Below are positions 1 to 46,784 of a stretch of DNA of 64,000 nt, one piece after another. The stretch is from contig DF237003.1 of the NCBI GenBank assembly GCA_000708835.1, forward strand, positions 1 through 64,000, read 5' to 3'. The stretch comes from Klebsormidium nitens (Eukaryota; Plantae; Klebsormidiophyceae). The position numbers and the translations under genes are program-made. The notes beneath the pieces were generated by a model that made no database searches, was not told the DNA's origin, and worked only from the letters and a program-made list of their open reading frames with translations. How positions within the stretch are numbered: the stretch's first letter is position 1; every line of letters starts with the position of its first letter.

Positions 1-424
1 GGCGCCTGCGTGATGTCAGTGCGCGCCGCAACCAGAACGGGCAAGCAGCAGCCAATCAGTAGGTCAGCCGCCTCACGCCAAGCCGCGCCCAAGCTGCACA
101 GTGGCCTCACACGACAGGCCCCTAAGAACGAACGACGTCGCGGCCGTCTCGCTGACATGCCGCTGGGCTTTCTACCCAAGGACTTCATTCGGACTTCCAG
201 TCCGACCAGACCCGAGCCTGCAGAGCAGAGCCGGATTTTGCCCAGACAGCCGCGCTGGAAGTTACCGCGCTGGCCAAGGGAAAGCATAAAAAGACTGCAC
301 CAGAAGACGCTGCTAAGAGCGCAGCCCAGGGACCACCAGAACATGGATTCTGCCTCAGGGCTTTCAGGAGCTGCCGTCGGACGATCCACGCCGCCAGGGA
401 GTCATTTATGGGCCTACCGCCCCA

Positions 425-1010
425 GTGGACACTGCGCCCGCACTGCAGGAGGCCGACCAGGCACCAGCTGCCTTAGGTCCGCCCCCAGAGCCGGCTGCTG
501 ATAACATCTATGACCCAGAGAACCCCCGAATTGGAGCGCTCTTAGGGAAGCTGCCAGGGGCGTACCACAGTGACCCGACCGCGGGGTTCCATAGGTCACC
601 TCGGATTGATAACTCCGGCCCGCAGCCTGCCCTCCTAGTGAACGGGCGCGTGGTGCCGAACCTGATTCTGGATTCTGGCGCTGAGGCCGTCATCACTGGC
701 CCCTCAGGTGCCAAGGCAATGGGGATTACCCCTGACATGATTCGCCGCAGAGCGATTGTGATCCGCGGTGCAACAGGACAGCTGTCCGACCGCTTGGATC
801 GAACACTTGAGCCGGTCAGCTTCGAGCTGAACCCAGGCACCCCCGACGTAGTCACTGTTATGGCGCACGTGGTGATTGCATCCCACCGTTCTGCCTGACA
901 CACTGATTGGGATGAGTGTCATGGGACCGGCCAGCATTATTCCGAACCCCCGCAAGCAGCGGGCGAAGTATTATGTGAACCCGAACACAGACAGCGAGCG
1001 CAGCGCCTAC
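425..1010 (+). pseudogene. Retroviral-type aspartic protease domain of Pol (frameshift near 890)
   Basis: LLVNGRVVPNLILDSGAEAVITG motif; the C-terminal DTLIGMSVM segment continues in the next frame (ORF 876..1490). Confidence 0.85.
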
Positions 1011-1337
1011 CTTCGGTGTGAATTCCCGATCGAGTACGGCCGCTCCCCGCTGCATGCTTACACAGCAGTGCTTCGCGGCTACGTTGGGGCAGTTATGCCC
1101 TTGCACATCAAGACACCGATTTCGCGTCTGGAAGCTGAGACAGCTCGACGCCCACTTGATCAGTACAACACCGAACTGATGACAGTCACGACAGATATCT
1201 TCGACCGCAGCGTGCGCGCGCTGGCTATGCCGGCTGCCCCGCCGCGGCCTATTAGAAACCCCGCTTTCCAGCACATCCGACCCCTGGACCAGAGCCTGAT
1301 CGACAAACGGGCCGTCCTGGACGTCGCTGGACCGGGG

Positions 1338-2330
1338 CTGGTAGTCATTGAGCTATTCACCGGCGTGATGGCCACCACAGAGGCGCTGGTGCGCAGTGGC
1401 CTGAAGGTTCGGAAGGTCTACGCTTGCGAGCTGGACAAGAAGGCACAGAAGGTGGCCGAATTCCGGCTGGGGAAACTTCAGGAGATGTAACCCGGCCTGC
1501 TGAGCACCGAGGCGTTCTCAAACGTCCACGGCGCGCTCCCTGACAACATTCAGGATGTGACACGAGGCCATATTGAAGGCCTGGAGAAGCCCGACTTGAT
1601 CGTTGCAAGATTTCCGTGTCAGGGATTTTCGAGAGCGGCCAGCGAGGCCAAAGGGTTGCGCGACCCGCGCACCAAGCTGTTTACGGAGGCCATTCGGGTA
1701 GTGCACACTGTGACCAGTGTCCACGGACCTTGCGCCTACCTGTTTGAAAACGTCGACGCCAGCGATCACCCGCAGGCGGACGTTCGCGACGAGTTTAATG
1801 ACGTCGTCAAGGGGGTCCTTGGACCAGGCTTTGCATTTGACGCAGTTGCCGCGGGCTCGCTCGCCCACCGCAACCGTCGCTGGTGGACCAACCTAGTCCC
1901 CAGCCCGCTCATTACTGAGATGGTTGAGAAGCGCTTCAAGCAGCGCCCCGATTTTCGCCGAGTTCAGGACATTCTGGAACCTGGCAGGACCGCGCAGCGA
2001 GTCAAGCACTCTGGTGCGCCGGGTCGACACCGCGTGAATGAGACAGGACAGCCACTTCGGGCTCTTTCCACTTTCGTCTCTCTGCGCGGGTCCCACGCTT
2101 ACCGCGTCGGGAGCCACAGCATGATTTTAGCCGCCAATGGCGAGCAGGAAGAGCCGACCGCCCTAGAGCGCGAGCGCGCTATGGGTTTTCTGGAGAACAG
2201 CACTCAGGCTGGGCCACCGATCACTGAGTCGGACCGCCGGCGCTTGCTGGGAAGCACGATGGACATGCATGCCTTGACCTTCCTGGTCAGCAGCATCAAG
2301 TGCTACCAGTTCGCGTTCTTCTCAGATTGA
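1338..2330 (+). pseudogene. DNMT3-like cytosine-5 DNA methyltransferase domain embedded in Pol
   Basis: One reading frame across ORFs 876..1490 and 1557..2330 (single TAA at 1488-1490): motif I ELFTGVMA (1350-1373), motif IV DLIVARFPCQGFS (catalytic Cys 1617-1619), motif VI FENV (ENV 1746-1754), motif VIII AHRNRRWWTNL (HRNRRW 1866-1883), motif IX ERERAMGF, motif X RRLLGSTMD. Confidence 0.92.
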
Positions 2331-2649
2331 CAATTCATGCGGCCCACCGCCAGCGGGTGGTCGGGCCTGATGGCACCTGATGCTTCAGGAGAGCCCAACT
2401 TGGTGGCGCCGCATCACGCGGCAGCATTTGTGCGCGCTGGTCTTCTCCCGCAGCGTAAGTTTCGGAGTTGTACTCCCGCCTCAGACACAGCCGCCTGGCA
2501 CAGCGTCGAGTCGACCGCCAGCAGCGGCTGGGGGGGGGAGAGGCCAGATTGGCACACCGCAGAAAGATCCTGGCAAGGAACAGCCAGAGGGGGATCCCCC
2601 GGACCTCCCGGACTTACTGCCGTCCGAGGAAGAGTCCGAGAAGCTCGAC

Positions 2650-4080
2650 TGGGGCTTAGGGGGGCGAGGCGATCTTACGCCTGAGCAGAAGCAAGCTCTT
2701 GAGGACTTGATGGACGAATTTCGTGACGTGCAAGCAGCCGATATGTCCGAAATGTCCACAATCATCGGGAAGAGGTTCAAGATTCCGGTTACGGATGATA
2801 CACCGATTTTCAAACACCAGTACCGGCTCGCTTACGCCGAGAAAGACATTCTGAAGGACCAGGTCGAAGAGCGCCTGAAGTGCGGCTTTTTTCGCCGGTT
2901 CAGTGTCCCCATGGGCCTCGCCTACAACCATGCCGCCGAAGAAGGATGAGCACGGCAATTGGACGTTGAAGCGACCATGCGGTGACTATCGAGGACTGAA
3001 CAAGGTCAGCATCCCTGACCACTATCAGCTGCCGACTCCAGAGGAGATATTCGATGAGCTGGCGGGTTCGACGTGGTTTACCACGCTTGACCTGCGCTGG
3101 GGTTACCACCAGGTAGCCATTGCAGAAGAGGACATCTGCAAAACAGCGTTCTGGGGCCACGACGGTCTCTACGAGTGGGTTGTTATGCCCTTCGGGAGCT
3201 GAAAAACGCCCCTGCCTTCTTTCGGAGGCTGATGGACACCACACTAAGTGCGCAGCGCGAGTTCTGCCGCTGTTACATCGACGACGTGATCATTCACAGC
3301 AAGTCGTTCGACGAGCACCTGATACATCTGCGCGCCGTTTTTGAGCGGCTGCGCGCGAAGCGGATTAAGTGCCACCCTAAGAAGATGCGGCTGGCCGTTC
3401 GCACAGTGCCCTACCTGGGCCACTTTATCGTTCCTGGCGGGACAGCGCCGCAGGACGTGAAGGTGGAAGCCATCGTACGGATGGTTCCGCCTCGGGACAT
3501 CTCGGAGCTGCGAGCCTTCTTAGGCACCTGCGGTTACTACCGGAGATACGTCCAGAACTATGCGCGCATCGCCGCACCCCTGAACCGCCTGCTTCAGAAC
3601 GTCGTTGTCTGGAACTGGGTTACTGACGAGCAGAAAGCTTTCGAGCTGCTCAAGCTCAAGCTGACTGAAGCGCCGGTCTTACGGCGCCCCGACTTCACCA
3701 GACCCTCTGAGCTGCACACCGACTGGAGTGCCACTGGGCTGGGCGCTGTTCTCGCACAGCATGACGAGGAAGGGAAAGAGTACGTGGTCGCTTACGCGTC
3801 ACGCAGCAACAATCGAACGGAGCGAAACTACTCCAGCTACCATGGAGAGTGCTTAGCTGCCGTCTGGGGAGTTTGCTACTTTGCTACTTCCGCGTGTACC
3901 TGTACGAGAGGCAGTTCACGCTGATCACAGACCACGAGCCGTTGCAGTGGCTGATGACAAACACGAAGCTGACGGGCATGCACGCCCGCTGGGCAAACAT
4001 CCTGCAGGAGTACGATCTGACGATTGTGCACCGCAGTGGAGTCAAGAATCTGGATGCAGATGGGCTCTCGAGGAACCCGC
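2650..4080 (+). pseudogene. Reverse transcriptase - RNase H of Pol (frameshifts near 2900, 3198, 3881)
   Basis: SPWASP, RPCGDYRGLN, LDLRWGYHQ, KTAF, MPFG/LKNAP, YIDD, YLGH, LHTDWSATGLGAVLAQ, TDHEPL, ADGLSR read across ORFs 2380, 2903, 3175, 3849. Confidence 0.95.
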
Positions 4081-4479
4081 TCCCAGAGGATGATGACTGG
4101 ACAGATGCCCGAATGGACCACGTCGGTCTGGACTTACCTGCCGTCTCGGCATGCCTTGCCATCCTGGCCGGCACCCTGAGCGAGCCCGAGGACCCAGAGC
4201 TGACGCGCCTACTAAGCCCTGACGACATTCAGGCACCAGAGAGAAGCCTGGCAGACACGCCAGCAGAAAGCTCTGCCGAAGCGCAGGCAGAACGCCCTGC
4301 ACAGCCGCAGGCAGAAAGCCCTGCAGACGCGCAGGCACTTGCAATCGTGGCGCCCCTGCGTGAGGCCGCCGATGACGATGTTGACTTGCCGGTCCGATTT
4401 GACCGCGAGATTTGGGAGGACGCCCCCGTAATGGCGTACCTGGAGGCTGGCGTGTACGCAAACGGCGTGACACCGAAGC

Positions 4480-5600
4480 AGAAGGATCGCATCTGGCACC
4501 GAGCCCAGAGCTATCAGTTGAAGGACGGCGTCCTGAGAAAACGCCTCGTTGACAGCGCGACAAAGATTGTCCCCCGTCCAGAGCTGCGCGCGAACCTGAT
4601 TCGCCGCGTGCACCAGGATGTCGGCCACTACGGCGTTCTGAAGACGTACTCACTGCTGAGCCCCACTTACTGGTGGGTCCGGATGTACGGTCAGGTCCAG
4701 CACGAGGTAGCTGCCTGCACCGTCTGCGATCGGGTCAAGGCGACCTTCGACGTCAAGGACCCCGAGCTCAAGCCCCTGCCTATCATGGGCATGTTCTACC
4801 GATGGGGCGTAGACCTGTGCAAGATGCCACAGAATTCCGACGACGGCAACCGCTACGTCGTCGTGATGGTCGAGCACTTTACGAAATGGATTGAGCTCCG
4901 TGCGATTCCGGCCAAGGAGGCCAAGCACGTCGCAGCCGCCTTTCGGGATGTTCTGATCCGATTTGGAGCGCCCGCGGAGGTCGTGACCGACCAGGGCCGC
5001 GAGTTTGAGGGCGAGTTCGATGAGCTCATGTTTGCCCTGTACATTGACCACATCTGGTCCTCGCGGAATCACCCGCAGACCGATGGTCTGGCCGAGCGCA
5101 TAGTACAAGTCGTCAAGAAGGCGATGCGCAAGTACGGCCTGCTGTTCAACAAGCGGCACTGGGACCGGTTCCTCCAATGGATTGCCTTGGGGTACCGAAT
5201 GAGCCGACAGGCGTCCCTGTGGGGGTATTCACCCTACTACATGCTCTTCGGCCGACACCCAATCGTCGGGAGCAAGGTCCGCGACGTTCTCCAGGAGCCA
5301 GTGGATCTGGACGATCCCATCCTGTGCGCGAAGTTCTTACACGACCGCGCTGAGCTGTTCAAAGAGATCGTACCCATGGCGTTCGACAATCTCGCCATCG
5401 CTCAGCACCGGGACATCCTGCGCTACGCGCACACCCGGTCAGGAGACTTCAAGCCGAAACTGCGTCGGTACGAAGTGGGCGATCTGGTTTACCTGCGCCG
5501 CCAGCCTGCTGACTCCCTGGACCCCAAAGTCGGCCGCCTGATTCCGGCGCGTCAAGGAACTGAAGGGAACGGGCCGAGTCCTTTTGGAAGGCCGTGACCA
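4480..5600 (+). pseudogene. DDE integrase of Pol
   Basis: HQDVGHYG...CTVC zinc finger; GVDL, VTDQGREF, GLAER catalytic motifs; frameshift near 5545. Confidence 0.93.
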
Positions 5601-5697
5601 GAAGACGATTACTGAGCACGTCGAGAACTGCGCTCCGTGCCACGACCCGAACATCGACCTCTGGCAGAACCCTGTGTTCACCGAAGCAGACCGGGAC

Positions 5698-5862
5698 CAG
5701 GCATGCCAAGTCTGCCATAAGACAACAGGCGCACCGAAGATGCTGCTGTGCGACAACTGCGACGAGGGCTGGCACATGCACTGCCTGACCCCGCCAGTGA
5801 AGCGCATGCCAAAGGGCAATTGGTTCTGCCCGAGGTGCCCTGTCAACGACGACGATGACTAG
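5698..5862 (+). pseudogene. PHD finger at the integrase C-terminus (end of Pol)
   Basis: CQVC-x8-LLCDNC-x4-HMHC-x13-WFCPRC = C4HC3 PHD pattern, 5704-5838; stop TAG 5860-5862. Confidence 0.92.
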
Positions 5863-5937
5863 ACGACTACTACGACTACCTTATTCGGGCTACTTCCGGG
5901 ACTTCAGGAGGCTACGTCGGGACGACTTCGGCAAGCT

Positions 5938-5946
5938 GGGGGGGAG
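5938..5946 (+). other. Polypurine tract
   Basis: GGGGGGGAG lying 75 bp after the Pol stop and directly before the repeated LTR-like sequence. Confidence 0.7.
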
Positions 5947-6651
5947 TACCATGGATTACTACGTTTTCTGCATGACTACGACTACATCAGCATGCTAAAA
6001 TTGATTGCGCGGATTAGCCGCGGTAGTTTTTCATTTCGAGCACATTAGATTGCGCATGGTCATAGGACCCGAGACGTTACTGACACGACATGTAGCATCA
6101 CGACAGCTGTCACGCTGTATGACATCGGCATAGCAGAGCATCGGTTGCATAGCGTATTGCATGATTTGCTTGTTATTGCATAGCTTATGAGACGTTGCAT
6201 AGCTTACGAGCTAGATTGCAGAGACGCGGTTACCTTAGCAGGTTATCGCAGACTCTAGTTCACGTTCGCAGTCGTTATGACTTGAGCCACAGCTCAGTCT
6301 GCTAGTATTCGATTCGATAGGCTAGTCTTACGGTTAGCCTCAGACCACGCCATACATTAGGCAGAGACATCTCGCTAGGAGACCATTCTTCTCGCGAGTA
6401 GACTCTCGTGAGGAGCTCTTGGCGCTTTGACATGGTGGCCATGCTTGCATCCTTTTAGTCTACTCGGCATTCACCTCTCTCCTTGCACTTAGTACCATGG
6501 ATTACTACGTTTTCTGCATGACTACGACTACATCAGCATGCTAGGATTGATTGCGCGGATTAGCCGCGGTAGTTTTTCATTTCGAGCACATTAGATTGCG
6601 CATGGTCATAGGACCCGAGACGTTATTGACACGACATGTAGCATCACGACA
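5945..6651 (+). repeat. 3' LTR region with a 161-bp direct repeat (5945-6105 / 6491-6651)
   Basis: Two copies 546 bp apart with 3 mismatches; non-coding; follows the PPT; ends in ...CACGACA. Confidence 0.85.
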
Positions 6652-6746
6652 ACGCATTGAGAGGTTCAACCTTAATCCGTCAGGATTGGGACTGTGACCT
6701 GTTGAATACGGAGCTTTCGAAAGGCTTTCCAAAGCCGGCAGTACAG

Positions 6747-8647
6747 TCAGTTCCGTCGACCCTCCACGACTATCATGTGATAGCCGTGCCTGCATTGAAA
6801 GAAACAATAGCTTTGTCAAAAACACAAGCAATGTTTACTTGAAGGACATGATTGAGACGAATGTTTACTTTCATCTTCTCAAATTAGAACCACCAGCAGA
6901 ACTTTGGAGTCATTAGCACCATTTCTCAACACCCCGGTCGAGCGGATAAAGGACGGATCGGACAAAGCGACATTTTCATGTACATCGCGCGTAAAATATG
7001 CATACGCCATGATAATTGAAGACAATCAACGGGTTGCCAACTTACGTCGATTTGAAAGGAGGAGCGAGTTCGCCAATTGGTGTTGCAAAAGCGACTTCTT
7101 GGAACGGTCCTGCCATTTTACCCCGTGGGAACCAGCCGAGGTCGCCCCCTTTCTTGCCCGAAGGACATTCCGAATACTCCATCGCTAGCTGCAAAAACCC
7201 GAGCTAGAGATCGCTGGTAAAACAAGGCTCCTCTAATCCTTTGAGAACAACTAAAGAAGTAAAATCTGAAAAACAGGCGGCTGTATCTTGACACAGAGAC
7301 CAGGGTATTCTTAATACTCAACAACAAGCAGGTAGTCTAGATGCAAGCGCTTCTATCAGAACATTCTGAAACCTCCACGACCTCACCTTGCCGAATTCTG
7401 CAGGTGGTACTTTGTCCCCAGCGTTCAACCAGCCTGCAGCGTACCCAAAAAAGCTAGAGTGTCAACATGCAAACAGACAAATATCTGATCCCAACACTCA
7501 TAGGCCCGGCACCCGGCTCAGTCCCATCTCACCAAACTAGGAGGGAAGACAAACTGTGCTAAGAGACGTAAACATGTAACAACGTAGACAACGTAGACGA
7601 CACAGGTGGTTACGACAGAACCTGCTTTCCTCGTCATGAGCCAGGCTGTGAGGATATAAGATGCCTCTCATAACACCATAAAGCATCCAGGTGGCCTTTG
7701 TCTTTCTTGAGTGTCTTGAAACTAGTCGAACGACTTTGTGCCCCAATCCAATTCTCACAGCTCAACCTATAAGCTGCAAGACAAAGGTGCCTTGCATAAC
7801 GGAAGGGAAGTGGAAAGATAAGTTGCCTTGAAGAAGGCAATCAGGGTATTAAGCTGCTGAGGGCAAGCATCGGCCTCATTAGAGTCCAGGCTGTAAGAGG
7901 GTGAGCTGACCACAAATGTTAAGAAGTAAACATCAGAAACGCAGGAAGAGTGGTCGGCCAGACTGACCTTCTTGCAGCTTCTTGTACGCTTCTTGGATTT
8001 TCCCCTGCTTTTCACAGAGAATGTGTCTAGCTGCAGTAGAAGGTTGGGAGATACAAACATCAATTGTAAATCTTGTCATGCCGTTTTTTAAGCCTTCTAA
8101 CAAACATCTTGTCATTGTCATCAGCGGGTTGACATCAGTAGGCTTTTAAAAGACAATTGGAGCACTTCACAAAATAGCAAAGTGAGGTCAGATTCAGTTT
8201 GACAGCATTGAGCTCTCAAAGACGATACAGAGTTTTAGAAAACATCGTGAGGAATCTTGGGAGGGAAAGAAAAGGGAAAGCGATCAGCGATGTTCTTGTA
8301 TGGGGCTCAGATCCTTGGTGGCGCGTTCTGGGGTGGTGCAGCATTTTACTGCACCCTTTGTTCCTTAAACAGAGTGCCACTATCACCCGCAAAACCAAGC
8401 ATGTCTTGCAAGTATTATGTGATGCATTAAAACAAACGTCTTCCACGCACCACTGATTTTCAACTTTCGTATCAAACACTAATTCAGCAAGGTCCTTTGT
8501 AGTGGAGCAATGCTGCATACCTTTCACATAAGTACATGTCCCTAGTCCTTCTTTGCTGCCCTTCCCTTTCCCCTTGCCACTATCGCCTCCCCCTTTTCCT
8601 GCTGCCGCTTTCCCCCCTGATGCCCCTGCTTTCGCTTTCGGGGCCAT
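6747..8647 (-). CDS. PIN4: Parvulin-type peptidyl-prolyl cis-trans isomerase (PIN4/Par14 family), 5 exons, 140 aa
   Basis: Exons 8647-8521, 8030-7968, 7433-7387, 7188-7046, 6789-6747, all GT-AG and in phase; GLGTCTYVKARHILCEKQGKI...YSECPSGKKGGDLGWFPRGKMAGPFQ...STHGYH matches plant PIN4. Confidence 0.96.
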
Positions 8648-28407: not shown

Positions 28408-30761
28408 TCAAAGTCTGTCTACGCTGCCCGTCCACGTCTCGTGCAGATGGGCATCAAGGTACTCGCGGATGGTACCTACGATCTCTCCCAAAGCCTCAGG
28501 ACTTCCGCGGTTCGTGTCCCAAACTCCGAGCAAACCCATCGGCCCGTACCGAGAGTCGGCATCAACCAACGCCCGGAAGAGGACATAGTGCTCGAACTTT
28601 TTGAAGTTGGGGCTCCACACAGCTTCCGTCGGGTCGCCACGAAAACCCAAACACTGTGGCCATGCTTCTAATGTTTGCAGCACTTGGTTCAGGATTGTTG
28701 TCAAATCCTCGTCGAATTCTCTGTCTCCCATGTTCTTCGGCCGATCGAGTGGCTGCGTGATCTCATGGGTTGTTCCCGACGCCAACGTGTGGCGTGCCCC
28801 AGTATGGCAGAGACTGATAGTGCTCCTCACGATGGCCTGTTTTGCTCTGCGGTGCTTACGCACTTCCACGACAAAGAACGCCACCGTGAGTCCGAAACTG
28901 AGGAGCCCTGTTGGGAGGGCCAATGCCAGTCCAAGGAGTCTCCCCAAGTCTTCCGGCTGGCGCGGATTGACTGCAAGAGGGGAAGTCTTGGCCCATGAGC
29001 TTGTAAGATTGTCAACGACGGAAGAAGTTGGAGGAATCATTGGTGATCAACTTTTGCCAAGGAGTTTGAATTCAGTTTGACAAAAAGCAATCAGTTTGTG
29101 AGCAACACCTCTTCTCAGCCAACTGGAACGAGGCGAAGTGCTGAGCAATGTTTGTGTTTCTGGATGTCATGGGCGGCAGTTTTTAGTTGCCAAGGCCTGT
29201 CAATTAAACCGGATTTCTGAGAGGACAAAGTTAATACAATATGAGAGAATCTGTTGAAAGCATGCCCTTCCAAGACTAAAGTGACGTGCATTCTGACATG
29301 TCCAGAAACATATGTGATTGGCCTTCGTCAAACAGAACCCAGCTGCCTGTTCCGAACCAGCGCAAAGCACTCAAATCTAAAATGCATATTTGTGCAGGTA
29401 TCTTGCGTATTGTTTTGGCTGTTTCTGAGCCAGAAATCACTCTCTGGAATTATCGGACAAGGCCCTGGCACAAAATTTCAGCTACACAAACTGATCCTGA
29501 GGCGTGCGCTCACCTTGAGTGGGACTGGGCGGAGGAGGACCTGGTACAAGCGACGGCGGTGGGCCGCTTACACCAGGACTTGGAGCTGGGGTAGACAAGA
29601 TGCCAGCTGGCCGGGACAAGCAAAGAGTAAGTTGGCGTCAGGTACGTTGAGAACAGAGCAGATAGAAGTGGTTTCCGCTGAGCTTAAAGCTTCCCTTGAA
29701 ACCTAGAAACTACACACCGAAGCGAGAGAACACTCTCCGGGGTAGAAAAGGCACCTTTCCTTGACTAGTCTGTATTCAAGCGAGGGCGACACCCTGTCCG
29801 AGAAGGTGCAGGAAAGGTGTAAACCGGGCAGCCGCACTCAAGGGGTTAACTAAACCTGCGCAAAGCAAGCACCATTTTGAGAAAAGGTTAGACACTTACT
29901 AGGGGGGCTGGAAGACGTGACCGGTGGTGGGGTGGAAGGGCACTGCAGCCCAGATGCCGGTTCAAAAATCAGGTCCGGGTTTCCCCTCTTTATGTACAGA
30001 CAAACGTAAGTTGCATTGTTCTTGAGCCTTGTGACAAGGGTTGAGGGGATGACACCAGTCAGAGAGTTGTTTGACAGCAGCACAGTGGAAAGCCTGTAGT
30101 TGCCAAGGGAGGAGGGTATAAGGCCGCTGAGGCTGTTGTTGCTAAGGGAAAGAGTGACTAGGTTGGGCAGATTACCCAGCTCCGTAATGACTGAGCCTGT
30201 GAGGTGGTTCTCATAAAGGAACAGCTGGCTGAGCTTGCTGAGTTTGCCAAGCTCAGCAGGGATAGGGCCGGTCAGGTTGTTTGTGGCCAGGCTTAGATAC
30301 TGAAGGTTGGTCAAGTTTCCCAGTTCAGAAGGAATGACACCCGTAATGCGGTTAGCAAACAGGTTCAGCCAGGCCAGGGCGCCCAGAGTGCCTAGCTGAG
30401 GGGGAATAGGGTCAGCAATGGCATTGTAAGAAAGGTTCAAGGACACAAGATTGTCTAACTTGCCAATCTCTGCTGGAATTGGGCCTATCAGACTATTGTG
30501 TGAGAGGTCCAGGTACTGAAGCTGTGTGAGGTTACCCAGCGCAGGAGGGATGGCTCCAAATAAGCCCCTTCCAACGAGCTCAATGCGCGTAAGGTTGCTC
30601 CATGTGCCGATCTCTGGGGGCAAGCTCCCCGGCGAGACGCCCGCCTTCAATGTCAGGTGCGTACCGTCGACCTGAAAGGCTTCGAGCGGGAGAACGACAG
30701 CCCTCGCAACCCCAACTGCAGTAAGCAGCCAAAGAAGGCCTACGCTCTGTGTCCTTCTCAT
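28408..30761 (-). CDS. LRR receptor-like protein: signal peptide, 8 plant-type extracellular LRRs, Pro/Ser stalk, TM helix, 152-aa non-kinase cytoplasmic domain; 3 exons, 505 aa
   Basis: Exons 30761-29900, 29606-29514, 28970-28408 (GT-AG, phase 1/1); IPxxLGxLxxLxxLxLxxNxLxGx repeats; TM LLGLALALPTGLLSFGLTVAFFVV followed by RKHRRAK. Confidence 0.88.
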
Positions 30762-32280
30762 CCTGCTGGAAGTTGGCGCTTTCGCAGGGAGACAAGGAGC
30801 TTCGTCTGTCCAGCGTCCTGACGACTACCCCGGCCACAATATAAAGACACAGCGGATCGGCTAGTACCCCGGGCTCATAGCCATGATCAGCATGATGCCC
30901 CTATGATGCGAAGCTAGCTGGTGAACATACTGCCAGAGCTAACGAAAGTGTCAAAGGAACACATAGCAGGCGAAAGACCGAAGGCAGAATGGGGACAGGA
31001 GCTGCGTCGCGGCCGTCAACAACAGAATGAGCAAAGTTTGCGTTTGCCAGCCGGATCCGTCTCTGACTTTGAGAAACTTGAACTCTCCTTCACCACAGAG
31101 TAGGTAGAACTTGAAGTGGCCGGTGATGATTATGAACCGGATCCAATCCAAGTTTCGAGACCCTCAGGCTCCGGCTGACATGGAATGTTTGAGGGGTTGC
31201 CCACATTTCCTTTCCGACCGGACCCGACATTTAATACATATGCCCCGGAGCGACCGAGATCTGCATGCGCCCAAACCCGGCCGGATCAGGCGTCTCGATC
31301 GAACCCTGTACTCGCCTATGAGGGTGGCAACCTAATACCCGGTACTAGTCGTTGAATCTCGCCGGCGGCACGAAAATGGGCAGACTACCGAGTGACTTTG
31401 GTCGGGTTAGGTCGGGGGTTAGGGTGGAGGAGGGCGACTCGCGAGTTGCATCCCCGGAGGTCAGAAAGCCCCCCGGGGAATATCTCTTCCGCATAAAGTC
31501 CGGTTCAATTGAATGGTACTCTTACTACCGTACTACGGTATACCATATTACCATCTACTATCTAGTATCTAGGTACCATCGTTGAGCATACGTACAGAAT
31601 TTTGTGCGTTCCCGTACTGCAGAGTCGCGGACGATGAAGTCCGGAAAAAGCTCGGCTATCGTACATATTACGTACTCTTTGCCCTGGCCCAGAGTCTGGG
31701 GGTCTCAGTTTTGCGCCATTTGGCAGTGCCGGGCGAACTCGCGGCTTTCACAGCATCGGATGTCCTGATATCTAGGAGTGTTTATCTAGGTAGTAGCTAC
31801 CGTACGGTACTGTCGAGGAGGGAGTGCCCAATGTCTAATGTCGTCATTGGTACCGTAGAAGTTGGTAGAACCCTAGGTATGTTACCGACGACCGTAGGTA
31901 CCGGCGTGGGCACATAGGTAGGTAAGTTAGGTAGGTAGTATACTACCTTAATATTTGCATTCGGAAAGTTGGAAATTCCAGATATTAGCAGTCAAAATTT
32001 GCTTTTTCGGAAAGGAAAAATAATTGTTAAATCCTGTTCAGAAAGTGATATCAAGCCCATATGAACCCAAGCACGTACCGGCACCCTTGATACCGGTAAG
32101 CCAGAAAAACAGGGTACCTGGGTACCTTTGAGCTCATCGGATTTAGGGTCGGATTCTGAAAAATAATACAAGAATTTTGAGCATTCGGAATCCTACCTTG
32201 GTAGTCCGATAACCTCCAAGCTAACCCCAACCGTTTCCCGGGTGCCTATGCTTGTGAACACTGGTGTCAAATGAAGTTAG

Positions 32281-33161: not shown

Positions 33162-34862
33162 ATGGGTTTGGCTCAGTTGCAGGGGATAGTGGCGCTCCTT
33201 CTTGCTGCCAGCTGTTTGCTTGCGCCAGCCAAAGCAGCAGTGAACGGACCTTGTAATGTCAGCACAACGAGCGGGTCCTTATATCCTGGGGTCTGCATTG
33301 CAACAACAGATTGCACGGCAAGCGGGGGCACTTTCGCTTCTACCTTCTGCCCCCATGACCCTGAGAACATCAAGTGCTGCTACAAAACAACCTGCCAAGG
33401 GGGGGGACAATGCAAATGGACCACGCAATGCACTACCGGAGCACCCACCCAAGGGAGCTGCCCTGGCCCGGTTAACTTTCAATGCTGCCCCGGAACTGGC
33501 ACTCCCAGTGCTATTCCACCAGCCTCAGGTACGCTTGAAGAGCAGATATAAGGTCAACTTTCTTGCAGAGGTACAGTTAAATGTACTACGTTACTTATAC
33601 TGCTTTCCTTGCAATTTCATGATTATGAGATTCAGCAGCTGATTGACCCGCTACCTAGCGAGAAGCTACATACATGATGGTTCATGGTCTGGTACGTAGT
33701 AGGAGCGTAGTAGGTGCTGGTTCAAATGATTCAAGACGCACTGTGAAAGTCAGAGATCCTATCAACCATGACGTGACCTGACTGTGTGGTTGCCACTGCT
33801 CGAAGCTTCATATTGAAGGCACGTTGAAGTGATACAGAAACCAACGTCAAGGGCTTTTTGAGGCATGCCCCAGCTTCTCTCGCTTCTGCGAGCCCACCAG
33901 CTCGAAAGGTCGAGGCCTGCAAACTCCCCTCTTCTGAGCTCCATTCTTGGTCATGTCTTGCTGCAGGCACTCCGGTCCGCAAAGGCAAGATTACTGTCTA
34001 CTGGGGCCAGAGCGGCAACGAGCCCTCCCTGGCTGCCACGTGTCAGAGCGGCAACTACGACAACGTCATCATCTCCTTTCTCAACGTCTTCGGGTCTGGC
34101 CGCACCCCAGCGCTGAACCTTGCAGGCCACTGCGACCCCCGCATCAACGGCTGTCTGAAACAGGCCTCTCAAATAACCACGTGCCAGCAGTTGGGCGTTC
34201 GGGTGCTTCTATCCATTGGCGGCGGCCTGGGCGACTATTCACTCGCGTCGAACGAGGATGGGCAGAGCGTCGCACGCTACCTTTGGAACACGTACCTAGG
34301 GGGCAGCAGTAGCGCGCGACCACTGGGGGCTGCCAAGCTGGATGGGATCGACCTCGACATTGAGAGTAGATCGGGGGGGAATTCGCAGACGGGTTACGCC
34401 GCGCTTGTGAGGCAGCTGCGCACCCTCATGAACGGCGACTCCTCCAAGCGCTATTACATCACAGGCGCCCCCCAATGTATTAAGCCCGACTATTTCCTTG
34501 GCCCTAAGGAAGGGACCGCCCTGGGTGAAGCTGCCGGGTCTTTTGATTGGCTGAACGTGCAGTTCTACAGCAACAATTGCGGCTACGGCTATAGCGGGGG
34601 CGGTACGGCCGCTGTCCTCAGGTCCTGGAACGACTGGTCCAGCTGGATGGCAAGCGCAAACCCTGCGATGCGCCTCTATCTGGGCATTCGCGCAAGTTCC
34701 GGATCGAAGGATTACATGGATCCGGCAACGCTGGCAGGCCTCCTGCCACTGCTGCAGAAGTCGAGCAACTACGGGGGAGTCATGCTGTGGGACGTGCTTA
34801 GTGACAACAGGAATGTCATCAACGGGAAGCCATTCAGCGCCAACATTCGTGGTTTGGTTTAG
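33162..34862 (+). CDS. Secreted GH18 class III (hevamine-like) chitinase/lysozyme with two N-terminal 6-Cys repeats; 2 exons, 420 aa
   Basis: Signal peptide; exons 33162-33528 and 33967-34862; ITVYWGQ, LNLAGHC, VLLSIGG, intact DGIDLDIE (34341-34364), GAPQC, NVQFY, GGVMLW. Confidence 0.95.
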
Positions 34863-44489: not shown

Positions 44490-46230
44490 TCTAAGTGCGC
44501 GCGTTCCTCGTCCGACAGCACACCGAGGCCTCTCGCCCAGAGCTTGCGCATATTGGACATCGCATCGAATCGCCCGACCGAGCAGCCCCCGCAAACCACT
44601 TCTCCGCAAATTCCACATCCTGGCCCACACCCGTGCCCGCTCCGTAGCAGACGCCCAGGCTGTTCTGCGCCCGCGCTGATCCCCCTTTGGCGGCCTTTCG
44701 ATACCACTCAGTTGCCTTCTTTTCGTCCTTGCTCACACCCGCACCTCGCTCGTGGCAGACGCCGAGATTGAACTGCGCGCCCGCGTGCCCCTGCTCTGCG
44801 GCTCGCCGGAACCACTCCGCTCCGCGAGCCGCATCCTACGCCGCACATCTTTGCCGCGAACGTAACACAACCCCATGTCATACTGTGCGACCGCCTCCCC
44901 CTTCTCAGCGGCCTTCCAAAACCACACCATCGCCATCGCCTCGCGTCCTTTTCCACGACCCCGTTCTTGTACCATTTGCACACCTTCTTGCACGGGGCTT
45001 GCACGCAGATGCGTGTTCCAGTCGGGCGGAATTTCTGTACCATTTCAACGCCAGTTCGTTGTCCTGTCGAACGCCCACGCCTCGCTCGTAACACGCGCCG
45101 ATCTCGAATAGGGCGTCCTTGTCCCCCTGCTCGGCAGCCTTACAGAAACAGTCCACACCACGCGCAACATCCCGCATCACGCGATCGCCTCGAAGATAGC
45201 AGCGACCCAACTGCACTTGAGCGCCCTCATCCCCCTGCGCCGTGCAGCCTTCCGGTACCATTGGACCGCCTTCCTCGCGTTCTCCGCGACGACGCCCTTC
45301 CGCCTTTGAGCACAGCACCTCCCGCAGGCATTCTGCGCGCAGCTGCATGCTCCTGCTCGGCTGCTTTTCGAATCCACTCCGCTCCAGCTTCACCGCGTCC
45401 CTGTCCACACCGATGCCACCGGTGTAACACAACCGCGAAAAGTAATGCGCGCTCGCTTCCCCTTGTTCGGCAGCCTTTCGGAACCACTCTACTGCCTTCC
45501 CCTCGTCCACGACCACACCACTGCCCCCTCATCGTAGCAGGCTCCCATTCCGGACTGCGCGCCTGCGTGCCCCTGCTCGGCAACCCTTCGAATCAATCTC
45601 GCACCCCGCACAGCGTCCCTCCCCACACCGATGGGGCACCGATGCCTGCGAGATAGTTTTTCCCACGGAGAACTGCGCGTCCGCATCCCCCTGCTCAGCC
45701 TGCGGCCTTCCGGTACCACTCGAGCGCACTTCTCTCGTCCTTCTTCACGCCGATTCTGCTTTCGTAACATTTCCCCAGCTTGGCTTGGGCCCCCGCATGC
45801 CCTTGCGCTGCAGCCACGCTGCAGCCTTTCGGCACCATTCGACGGCCTTCCCCGCGTCTTTGCCCACACTGGTGCCTTCTTCGTAACACGCCCCCACACT
45901 GGCATGCGCGCGCTGCGGCCTTCCGGTACCATTCGATGGCCTTCCTGTGGTTCTTGCCAGCACCCGAAGCGCGCTGTCGCAGCAGGCCCAGGTTGCACTG
46001 TGCTTCCGTGTCTCCCTGCTCAGCTCGCTCTCGAAACTCCTCCCGGCACTGAACGGCAGCCTTAGTGTACCACACGCGCCAGGGCCTTGTCCACGCTCCT
46101 GCCTTGGGTGTATCACACGATCGACAGCTTATATTGCGAATCCCCCTGCTCGGCGACCTTCTGCAATTACTCCATCGAGCCCGGAAAGCTGGAATCGCTG
46201 ACCCCCTGCGCGTCGTGACTCGCATTACTC
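44490..46230 (-). pseudogene. Intronless Sel1-like repeat protein pseudogene (roughly 15 repeats)
   Basis: Recurrent KAxEWYRKAAEQGxAxAQxxLGxCYxxGxGVxxD units scattered over all three minus frames; many frameshifts. Confidence 0.88.
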
Positions 46231-46784
46231 CGAACTCGGTCTGGTTGAGATTGTGCCTATCCTTGCGGGCAATGGCAAACGCAAGTCAGTGCGTTCACCG
46301 ACTGTCTATGAGAACTTCACATACGAATTATATGACGACACAATTGGCAAGTTCAATGTTTTGACTCTCTACTATGAAGAGCTACTTAAGCATTGCCAAC
46401 GTTGCGCAGAAGATGAACCTTCGTCTGATAGCGGAGAATATAAGAGATGTGCATTTGAGAAACCTTCCCTCATTTGGAGTACCTTGATTTGGCAGGATGC
46501 AAGTACCTGCGTACCTTAATCGGACTACATGGTAAGGTCCACTTACGAAGAATCATGGACTGTTTGTTATGTATTGCACTTTCTCAAGACGAGTGTTGAC
46601 GACTTTCATAAAGCATTACCTGAAACTACATTGGATTTTTGGGGATGATGACAGTTATGTTCCAACGAACAAAGATTTAGAAGAATATATGATCAAGTTC
46701 AATTTGAGGAATACCTGGGCATCGAATTAGACGATTGATCTTCCAGGGAAGGTTCTCTGGAAACACTTCATTAATCATTATATC

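Follow-up and report, generated by a model that had tools for sequence, protein, structure and literature searches.

Does the retrotransposon at the start of Klebsormidium nitens contig DF237003.1 carry its own DNA methyltransferase, and how would such an enzyme be made? The DNA analysed, called the window throughout, is 64,000 nucleotides (nt) long (GenBank assembly GCA_000708835.1, positions 1 to 64,000 of the forward strand). A sequence-only reading of it had proposed a Gypsy element with a DNMT3-like C5 cytosine methyltransferase (here DNMT) inside Pol. The element is a decayed member of KnitGypsy-Dnmt3, a family described by de Mendoza et al. in 2018 (PMC5890265), and the class was already known. 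We hold with high confidence that window positions 1-6651 are a decayed KnitGypsy-Dnmt3 copy in which 1338-2330 is a DNMT3-like C5 cytosine methyltransferase domain; this confidence covers jointly the family assignment, the lesions, the sister copies and the proposal that the enzyme would be expressed at the level of Gag.

The domain lies on the + strand in frame 0, which is open from 876 to 2330 save for one TAA at 1488-1490. Read with X at the TAA, the frame matched Pfam profile PF00145 with an E-value of 3.2e-13 (50.3 bits against a cut-off of 22), the alignment spanning profile positions 3-113 of 324 only. Six motifs were located between the protease and the reverse transcriptase (RT), as had been claimed, in the canonical, non-rearranged order I-IV-VI-VIII-IX-X, unlike that of DRM:

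1350-1379, + strand: motif I, ELFTGVMATT
1608-1631, + strand: motif IV, RFPCQGFS
1737-1760, + strand: motif VI, YLFENVDA
1863-1895, + strand: motif VIII, AHRNRRWWTNL
2166-2189, + strand: motif IX, ERERAMGF
2235-2264, + strand: motif X, RRRLLGSTMD

The linker distal to the protease was correctly read as sharing the frame of the domain, the open reading frame (ORF) 876-1490 being continuous with it. The domain had also been called a full catalytic domain, which holds in that all six motifs are present, but the frame is interrupted by the TAA at 1488-1490 and the Gly of motif IV has become Arg.

Stop-to-stop ORFs and Pfam matches outline one retroelement on the + strand from 1 to ~6651, with its 5' end beyond the window edge. 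The order of domains, taken from ORFs, Pfam and relatives, is gag, protease, DNMT, RT, RNase H, integrase and PHD finger, and by Pfam the arrangement is that of Ty3/Gypsy elements, with the protease upstream, followed by RT, RNase H and an integrase with an H2C2 domain and a DDE core. Its features are as follows, where P0001 to P0006 are related proteins and sister contigs are those assembled from other public runs:

1..328, + strand: C-terminal part of gag, in frame 1 to ~226 and then in frame 0 to 328; aligns to P0001 from residue ~630
329..887, + strand: aspartyl protease region in frame 2, DSG motif at 662-685; Asp_protease_2 E 0.0063, below the Pfam cut-off
888..1322, + strand: linker from protease to DNMT, in the frame of the DNMT; ORF 876-1490, aligns with P0001-P0006
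1323..2327, + strand: DNMT3-like C5 cytosine methyltransferase domain, inactivated here; PF00145 as above, best PDB matches DNMT3
1488..1490, + strand: in-frame TAA, private to the window copy; TAC (Tyr) in sister contigs, Tyr in P0001
1608..1610, + strand: AGA (Arg) replacing the Gly of motif IV GFPCQGFS; 1608 A>G in sister contigs
2328..2330, + strand: TGA stop directly behind DNMT motif X, in sister copies in frame with RT
2331..2600, + strand: variable linker from DNMT to RT, with ATG 2337-2339, hairpin 2341-2367, 2-base deletion behind 2464 and G-run 2527-2538
2601..3924, + strand: RT and start of RNase H; RVT_1 E 7.9e-10 and 1.5e-12, RT_RNaseH_2 E 7.5e-29
3765..5543, + strand: end of RNase H, and integrase (H2C2 zinc domain, rve core); Integrase_H2C2 E 4.4e-14, rve E 2.2e-10
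5544..5862, + strand: PHD finger at the integrase C-terminus, Cys/His core 5704-5841; PF00628 E 1.2e-11, split from the integrase by a +1 shift of frame at 5543/5545
5935..5946, + strand: polypurine-like tract GCTGGGGGGGAG, adjoining the terminal repeat; pattern search of the window
5945..6651, + strand: 3' terminal repeat block, direct repeat, consisting of B1 5945-6105, A2 6106-6490 and B2 6491-6651

In the window the protease match is weak; relatives P0002, P0006, P0007, P0010 and P0020 have stronger ones. The YIDD of RT is found at 3271-3288, and compared with sister contigs the RT frame is broken by +1 at 2899, +2 at 3196 and +8 at 3872. The placement of the methyltransferase inside Pol was right in position, since it lies between protease and RT, but the domain ends the Gag-protease-DNMT frame at a TGA and is not part of one continuous Pol ORF.

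The precedent in Klebsormidium cited in the sequence-only reading is the very family to which the element belongs. PMC5890265 describes KnitGypsy-Dnmt3 in K. nitens as having intronless Dnmt3-related domains within a Gypsy-type coding region, with repeats "the same as that of a DIRS retrotransposon", Ka/Ks below 0.2 and copies that carry CHG and CHH methylation; that the enzyme methylates the element itself is a hypothesis in its discussion, and the function suggested by the sequence-only reading (an enzyme packaged, freed by the protease and pre-methylating the cDNA) is this same published speculation. The window element shares with the published family an intronless Dnmt3-related domain embedded in a Gypsy-type element (its domain is 89% and 79% identical to K. 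nitens proteins), a pattern of purifying selection and, as far as its 3' end shows, probably terminal repeats unlike ordinary LTRs (long terminal repeats). It differs in nothing essential, the window copy being a dead member. The family has been cited later as "streptophytes (Gypsy-DNMT3)" (preprint 10.64898/2026.05.21.726589; PMC12344493), and its spread is partly known because a 2019 opinion paper mentions cytosine-methylase-encoding Gypsy elements in green algae and charophytes (PMC6338049). No mention of the in-frame stop behind the DNMT, of a PHD finger on the integrase or of a duplication of the G-rich tract was found in the text of PMC5890265, supplementary figures aside; the words "PHD" and "protease" have 0 occurrences in its main text, and its supplementary review file and species table make no mention of a stop codon, readthrough, frameshift or PHD. 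No paper on PHD fingers in the integrases of algal LTR retrotransposons came up in a literature search.

The window copy is dead. Lesions private to it keep it from making the enzyme: a TAA at 1488, Arg for Gly in motif IV, and eight indels that break the frame. Sister contigs of four public runs were aligned to positions 1-6800 at a likeness of at least 90%. At 1490 all four runs have C for A, which turns the TAA separating motif I from the other motifs into TAC (Tyr), and P0001 has Tyr at the same position. At 1608 all four have G for A, turning RFPCQ into GFPCQ (in the run labelled X1, at a depth of 20.1 of 29); P0001, 98% identical to the window, and all sister copies aligned read GFPCQ, and Gly stands at this position in 96% of 91 domains compared. 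Against the sister contigs, the window is one base (G) short behind 328 and two (GA) short behind 2464, has one extra base at 887, 2899 and 5543/5545, two at 3196 and eight at 3872, and at 225/226 the contigs diverge from it. By arithmetic on the ORF list, eight indels explain every change of frame (1, 0, 2, 0, 1, 2, 1, 0, 1), and the close sister copies without these lesions are a single frame running gag-protease-DNMT-TGA-RT-RNase H-integrase-PHD. The DNMT frame is intact in P0001-P0010 and in the sister copies, and the window domain differs from that of P0001 at 8 of 335 positions.

In the best-supported 40 of 676 differences from the sister contigs, a sample that is itself a weakness of this comparison, 39 were coding, with 27 synonymous and 28 at third codon positions. 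Within the methyltransferase there were 5 synonymous and 3 non-synonymous differences, and 2 of those 3 were the window's own lesions. As far as can be judged from sequence, these differences, which do not amount to a proper dN/dS, point to purifying selection, in agreement with the published value. One X1 contig joins 1043 directly to 6494, with 5450 bases skipped, which suggests a derivative with an internal deletion in which gag, the protease and the last repeat have been kept.

Intact relatives have a Gag-protease-DNMT frame, in which the DNMT is C-terminal, upstream of RT, RNase H and integrase. P0001-P0006 (1160-1278 aa) contain a gag zinc knuckle (zf-CCHC) and the DNMT, with a protease Pfam match in 2 of the 5 scanned (P0002 and P0006), and end in ...FAFFSD, a few residues behind motif X, at the position of the window's TGA at 2328-2330. 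Contigs of runs X6, X8, X9 and X12, compared over 2262-2561 at a likeness of at least 80%, have no difference listed at 2328-2340, and the additional GA behind 2464 was present in all 7 distinct runs aligned. Because this GA is present and the TGA is unchanged, RT, RNase H, integrase and PHD finger lie in the frame of the DNMT behind a retained TGA in close sister copies. A midpoint-rooted FastTree tree of 113 related domains, in which four long branches were flagged, showed that the stop marks one well-supported clade: 25 proteins end 6 aa or less from the end of the domain, and all of them fall in one clade of 27 rows (25 of 27; SH-like support 100, branch length 0.78), while all 84 proteins with the DNMT fused to RT fall outside it. 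Stand-alone RT-RNase H-integrase-PHD proteins of 1106-1155 aa also exist among the relatives, and two of these, whose contigs are equal in length to those of two proteins that end at the stop (ORF1 proteins), probably share contigs with them.

From this arrangement we infer that the DNMT would be made at the level of Gag and Pol by recoding, most simply by readthrough of the TGA, the signs of readthrough being weak. The DNMT is predicted to be made with Gag because it sits upstream of a conserved in-frame stop. Gag-protease-DNMT would be the default translation product of live copies, with the methyltransferase in Gag amounts, and RT-RNase H-integrase-PHD would appear only upon readthrough of the TGA. 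The DNMT would then be released by the element's protease and could methylate the element's own cDNA or new insertion, as in the published hypothesis. Gammaretroviruses express gag-pol by readthrough of a stop codon. The sister copies are like them in having an in-frame stop before RT, RNase H and integrase and a stem-loop 10 nt behind the stop; they differ in that the stop lies behind protease and DNMT and not behind Gag, in that the local fold is not unusual, and in that readthrough is here only predicted. The stop context is UGA CAA UUC. The 11-bp hairpin that begins 10 nt behind the stop (2341-2367) keeps its pairing in two of three sister variants and loses it in one.

Several observations weigh against this plan of expression. 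Folding of the 149 nt that surround the stop is not better than that of shuffled sequences (z -0.97), and an ATG 6 nt behind the TGA (TGA CAA TTC ATG) makes reinitiation possible. Of the differences in the linker behind the stop, 5 are synonymous and 17 non-synonymous, and one degenerate contig of low depth accounts for most of them. A resemblance of this linker (44 residues) to the N-terminus of P0023, seen by eye, was rejected at a BLASTP E-value of 0.35. The in-frame relation between ORF1 and ORF2, the RT-RNase H-integrase-PHD frame, was seen for close sister copies only.

Pol could instead be a separate protein of RT, RNase H, integrase and PHD finger, translation terminating at the TGA and starting again by reinitiation or internally at ATG 2337-2339, with no fusion made. 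This appears rather unlikely. It would suit the in-frame ATG just behind the stop, the stand-alone ORF2 proteins of 1106-1155 aa that gene callers predict with a Met start, and the lack of coding constraint in the linker, which is a small sample. However, ORF2 shares the frame of ORF1 in close sister copies, which reinitiation would not need, and in more distant relatives the stop is missing and the proteins are true fusions (84 rows). Nor is a conserved start codon evident, since the predicted ORF2 proteins begin at distances of ~12 to 53 residues upstream of the linker's LGGG motif. Packaging in LTR elements normally depends on a fusion of Gag and Pol, which likewise tells against a separate Pol.

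A bolder form of the readthrough proposal is put forward tentatively, as a possibility that is open to real doubt. The TGA may be a conserved recoding signal of the Klebsormidium-type clade, giving Gag-protease-DNMT in bulk and RT-RNase H-integrase-PHD rarely, so that particles would contain the DNMT in capsid-like numbers and the PHD-tipped integrase would pick the chromatin. If this is true, the cDNA would be methylated inside or just outside the particle, with the writer at structural and the reader at enzymatic stoichiometry.

Relatives of the domain were numerous. Among 22 longer relatives, 20 carry PF00145 and 4 are named K. nitens, the best being P0001 at 98% and KFL_013780020 at 89% identity; a further 90 of similar length include K. 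nitens proteins at 79% (KFL_000540020) and 54% and one Closterium protein at 36%. Using a hidden Markov model (HMM) built from Klebsormidium-type domains, a near-full-length DNMT domain was found in 113 of 246 proteins. Of these 113, 84 are long fused Gypsy polyproteins with protease, DNMT, RT, RNase H, integrase and PHD finger (e.g. P0095, residues 1422-1768, and P0076, residues 372-708), and they include proteins of the chlorophytes Monoraphidium neglectum (XP_013895387.1) and Chromochloris zofingiensis, for both of which the precomputed Pfam lists are without PF00145. PF00145 is often absent from the precomputed lists of the fused polyproteins, and PF00628 is in the list of most of the 120 relatives listed. 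Two proteins of ~455 aa, P0237 and P0238, stand inside the retrotransposon DNMT tree beside fused eukaryotic elements. One of them is source-labelled as a "Candidatus Obscuribacterales" metagenome-assembled genome and is probably from a eukaryotic contig binned into a bacterial genome.

Could the domain be kept for something other than DNA methylation, as a structural or nucleic-acid-binding part or as an enzyme acting on RNA? This is unlikely on the pattern of conservation, which was taken from 91 domains (90 near-full-length relatives cut out with the family HMM, and that of the window). An alignment of 45 whole polyproteins had been dropped as too heterogeneous. The glycine of motif I is kept in 100% of the 91, the catalytic cysteine and the Glu-Asn of ENV each in 97%, AHRxRxxWxN in 95-100% per position, ERE..G in 96-98% and the G..MD of motif X in 97-100%, and the Klebsormidium-type clade keeps the full set (FxGxxA, GFPCQGFS, ENV, AHRxRxxWTN, ERERAMGF, LGxxMD). 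In favour of another role, Glu replaces the Pro before the catalytic Cys in 58% of the 91, giving E-C-Q and not P-C-Q. A second point on that side, and one that counts against our own reading, is that the K. nitens domain did not methylate DNA de novo in yeast, a result that its authors regarded as inconclusive (PMC5890265). Against another role, human DNMT3B also failed in the same assay (PMC5890265).

That the domain is of the bacterial or phage restriction-modification type, or belongs to another eukaryotic DNMT class, is very unlikely. When it was searched with phmmer against all PDB chains, DNMT3A/B/C were the first 26 of 51 matched sequences (best E 5.8e-8), followed by M.HhaI (3.6e-4), DNMT2 (0.0046) and DRM2 (0.1), and DNMT1 was absent among the matches at E<=1. 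A profile of ten family members likewise gave DNMT3 the first 27 of 57 places in the PDB; here DNMT3A was ahead of M.HhaI by only ~11 bits (42.6 against 31.7), which leaves some room for a non-DNMT3 origin. In both searches the DNMT3 alignments extend through motif VIII, whereas those with HhaI end behind motif IV. The signatures AHRxRxxWxNL, ERxxGF and RxLLG, on which the sequence-only reading had preferred DNMT3 to DNMT1 and DNMT2, paired with DNMT3C and DNMT3A in the HMMER alignments, and the search ranks bear out that preference. In a Foldseek search of the PDB, 36 of the 36 rows listed were DNMT3A/B/C catalytic domains (E 1.8e-11 to 1.1e-9), with target-normalised TM scores up to 0.71 among these rows and identities of 18-22%. 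Phage methyltransferase clusters tied with the streptophyte cluster in a language-model look-alike search, which would suit a non-DNMT3 origin; the search did not separate the classes and was rejected as class evidence. No PWWP or ADD match was found by Pfam in the window pieces or in 11 relatives, which also favours such an origin, and the PHD finger was the sole reader-type domain. In the published tree the family groups with Dnmt3 and forms a divergent, Dnmt3-related clade (PMC5890265).

By sequence, profile and predicted fold, then, the domain is DNMT3-like, with DNMT3A/B/C its closest solved relatives. With host DNMT3A/3B/3C (PDB 8tdr, 5yx2, 6kda, 8tci) it has in common the order of motifs and the three signatures; it differs in its low identity, in being without PWWP or ADD, and in a longer stretch between motifs VIII and IX, of ~90 residues, than in the DNMT3 alignments. 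Two points detract from this placement. The query of the fold search was an AlphaFold2 model of moderate quality built from a ten-row alignment (pLDDT 62.9, pTM 0.67), with low confidence at residues 197-266, between motifs VIII and IX. The placement also rests on PDB rankings and the published tree, and not on a DNMT1/3/5/6 reference tree of our own. Finally, the domain recurs in 22 longer relatives, in 90 of similar length and in the sister copies, and contigs from 7 different public runs cover the region; this refutes a single capture of part of a host gene, or a chimera of the assembly, limited to the window copy.

The 3' end of the element is compatible with the published repeat structure. 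A direct repeat of 161 nt, at 5945-6105 and 6491-6651, is 98% identical between its two copies and flanks 385 nt, and the resulting layout B1-A2-B2 would fit the DIRS-like repeat structure in the Fig. 4c legend of PMC5890265; it is seen at the 3' end only, and the expected A1 would lie beyond the window's 5' edge. There are exactly two occurrences of the tract GCTGGGGGGG(R)G in the 64 kb, both on the + strand within the element (2527-2538 and 5935-5946), and with up to 1 mismatch there are 4 matches against 0.89 expected in the window. The copy at 2527-2538 encodes the (E/Q)LGGG motif, the sole conserved feature of the linker among relatives. It may be a central polypurine tract, which would explain the conservation of (E/Q)LGGG. 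Contigs of other runs that end at 6490 continue for ~30 letters unlike the window, and another contig has identical letters ahead of 5943. A junction leading from 6405 back to 5946 was seen in one contig. It thus seems that an additional short segment lies between the A and B repeats of other copies, or that these copies contain a tandem or circular junction.

Other retroelements with a methyltransferase or a chromatin reader differ from this one in backbone or in layout. SymbioDIRS-Dnmt3 and SymbioLINE-Dnmt of Symbiodinium are likewise retrotransposons with a C5 cytosine methyltransferase, and the Dnmt3-type domain of SymbioDIRS-Dnmt3 methylates CG de novo in yeast, but their backbones are a tyrosine-recombinase DIRS or a LINE and not a Gypsy element with a DDE integrase; the Symbiodinium and Gypsy cases were treated as independent acquisitions (PMC5890265). 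The EpiLTRs of Cymbomonas and Euglena also combine, within an LTR retrotransposon, a cytosine DNMT and a chromatin-reader domain. Their DNMT, however, is sister to DNMT4, and it shares the 3' end of pol with an adenine methyltransferase and a chromodomain; the preprint describing them itself sets them apart from streptophyte Gypsy-DNMT3 (10.64898/2026.05.21.726589). Chromoviruses resemble the window element in having a histone-reader-type domain on the C-terminus of a Gypsy integrase; the window has a PHD finger there (PF00628) and no chromodomain found by Pfam. Chromodomains guide integration, as stated in the introduction of the same preprint.

No second copy of the element was found in the 64-kb window by blastn and tblastn, which has no bearing on a one-off capture given the relatives elsewhere. 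A tRNA scan of the window found none, and no primer-binding site could be assigned. Among 80 loci from a metagenome scan there was no member of the family, because the two peptide patterns used also fit bacterial enzymes; all were distant methyltransferases, 21-52% identical over partial matches. A scan of viral contigs for the relatives' DNA gave no match. Outside the element, three long open frames resemble, by eye only, a leucine-rich-repeat receptor ectodomain (29850-30824, - strand), a class III (GH18-like) chitinase (33828-34862, + strand) and Sel1-like repeats (44905-46285, - strand), a set that suits a host of the plant lineage.

That a Gypsy element carries a DNMT3-like enzyme of its own, the central claim, has been in print for this algal genus since 2018, and to this the window adds one dead copy. 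What is added in detail is the position of the enzyme upstream of a conserved in-frame stop, a PHD-tipped integrase and a duplicated G-rich tract, together with a related DNMT domain in 84 fused PHD-integrase polyproteins that is often unflagged by standard Pfam annotation. These details would help in testing why transposons carry an enzyme that is used by their hosts to silence them.

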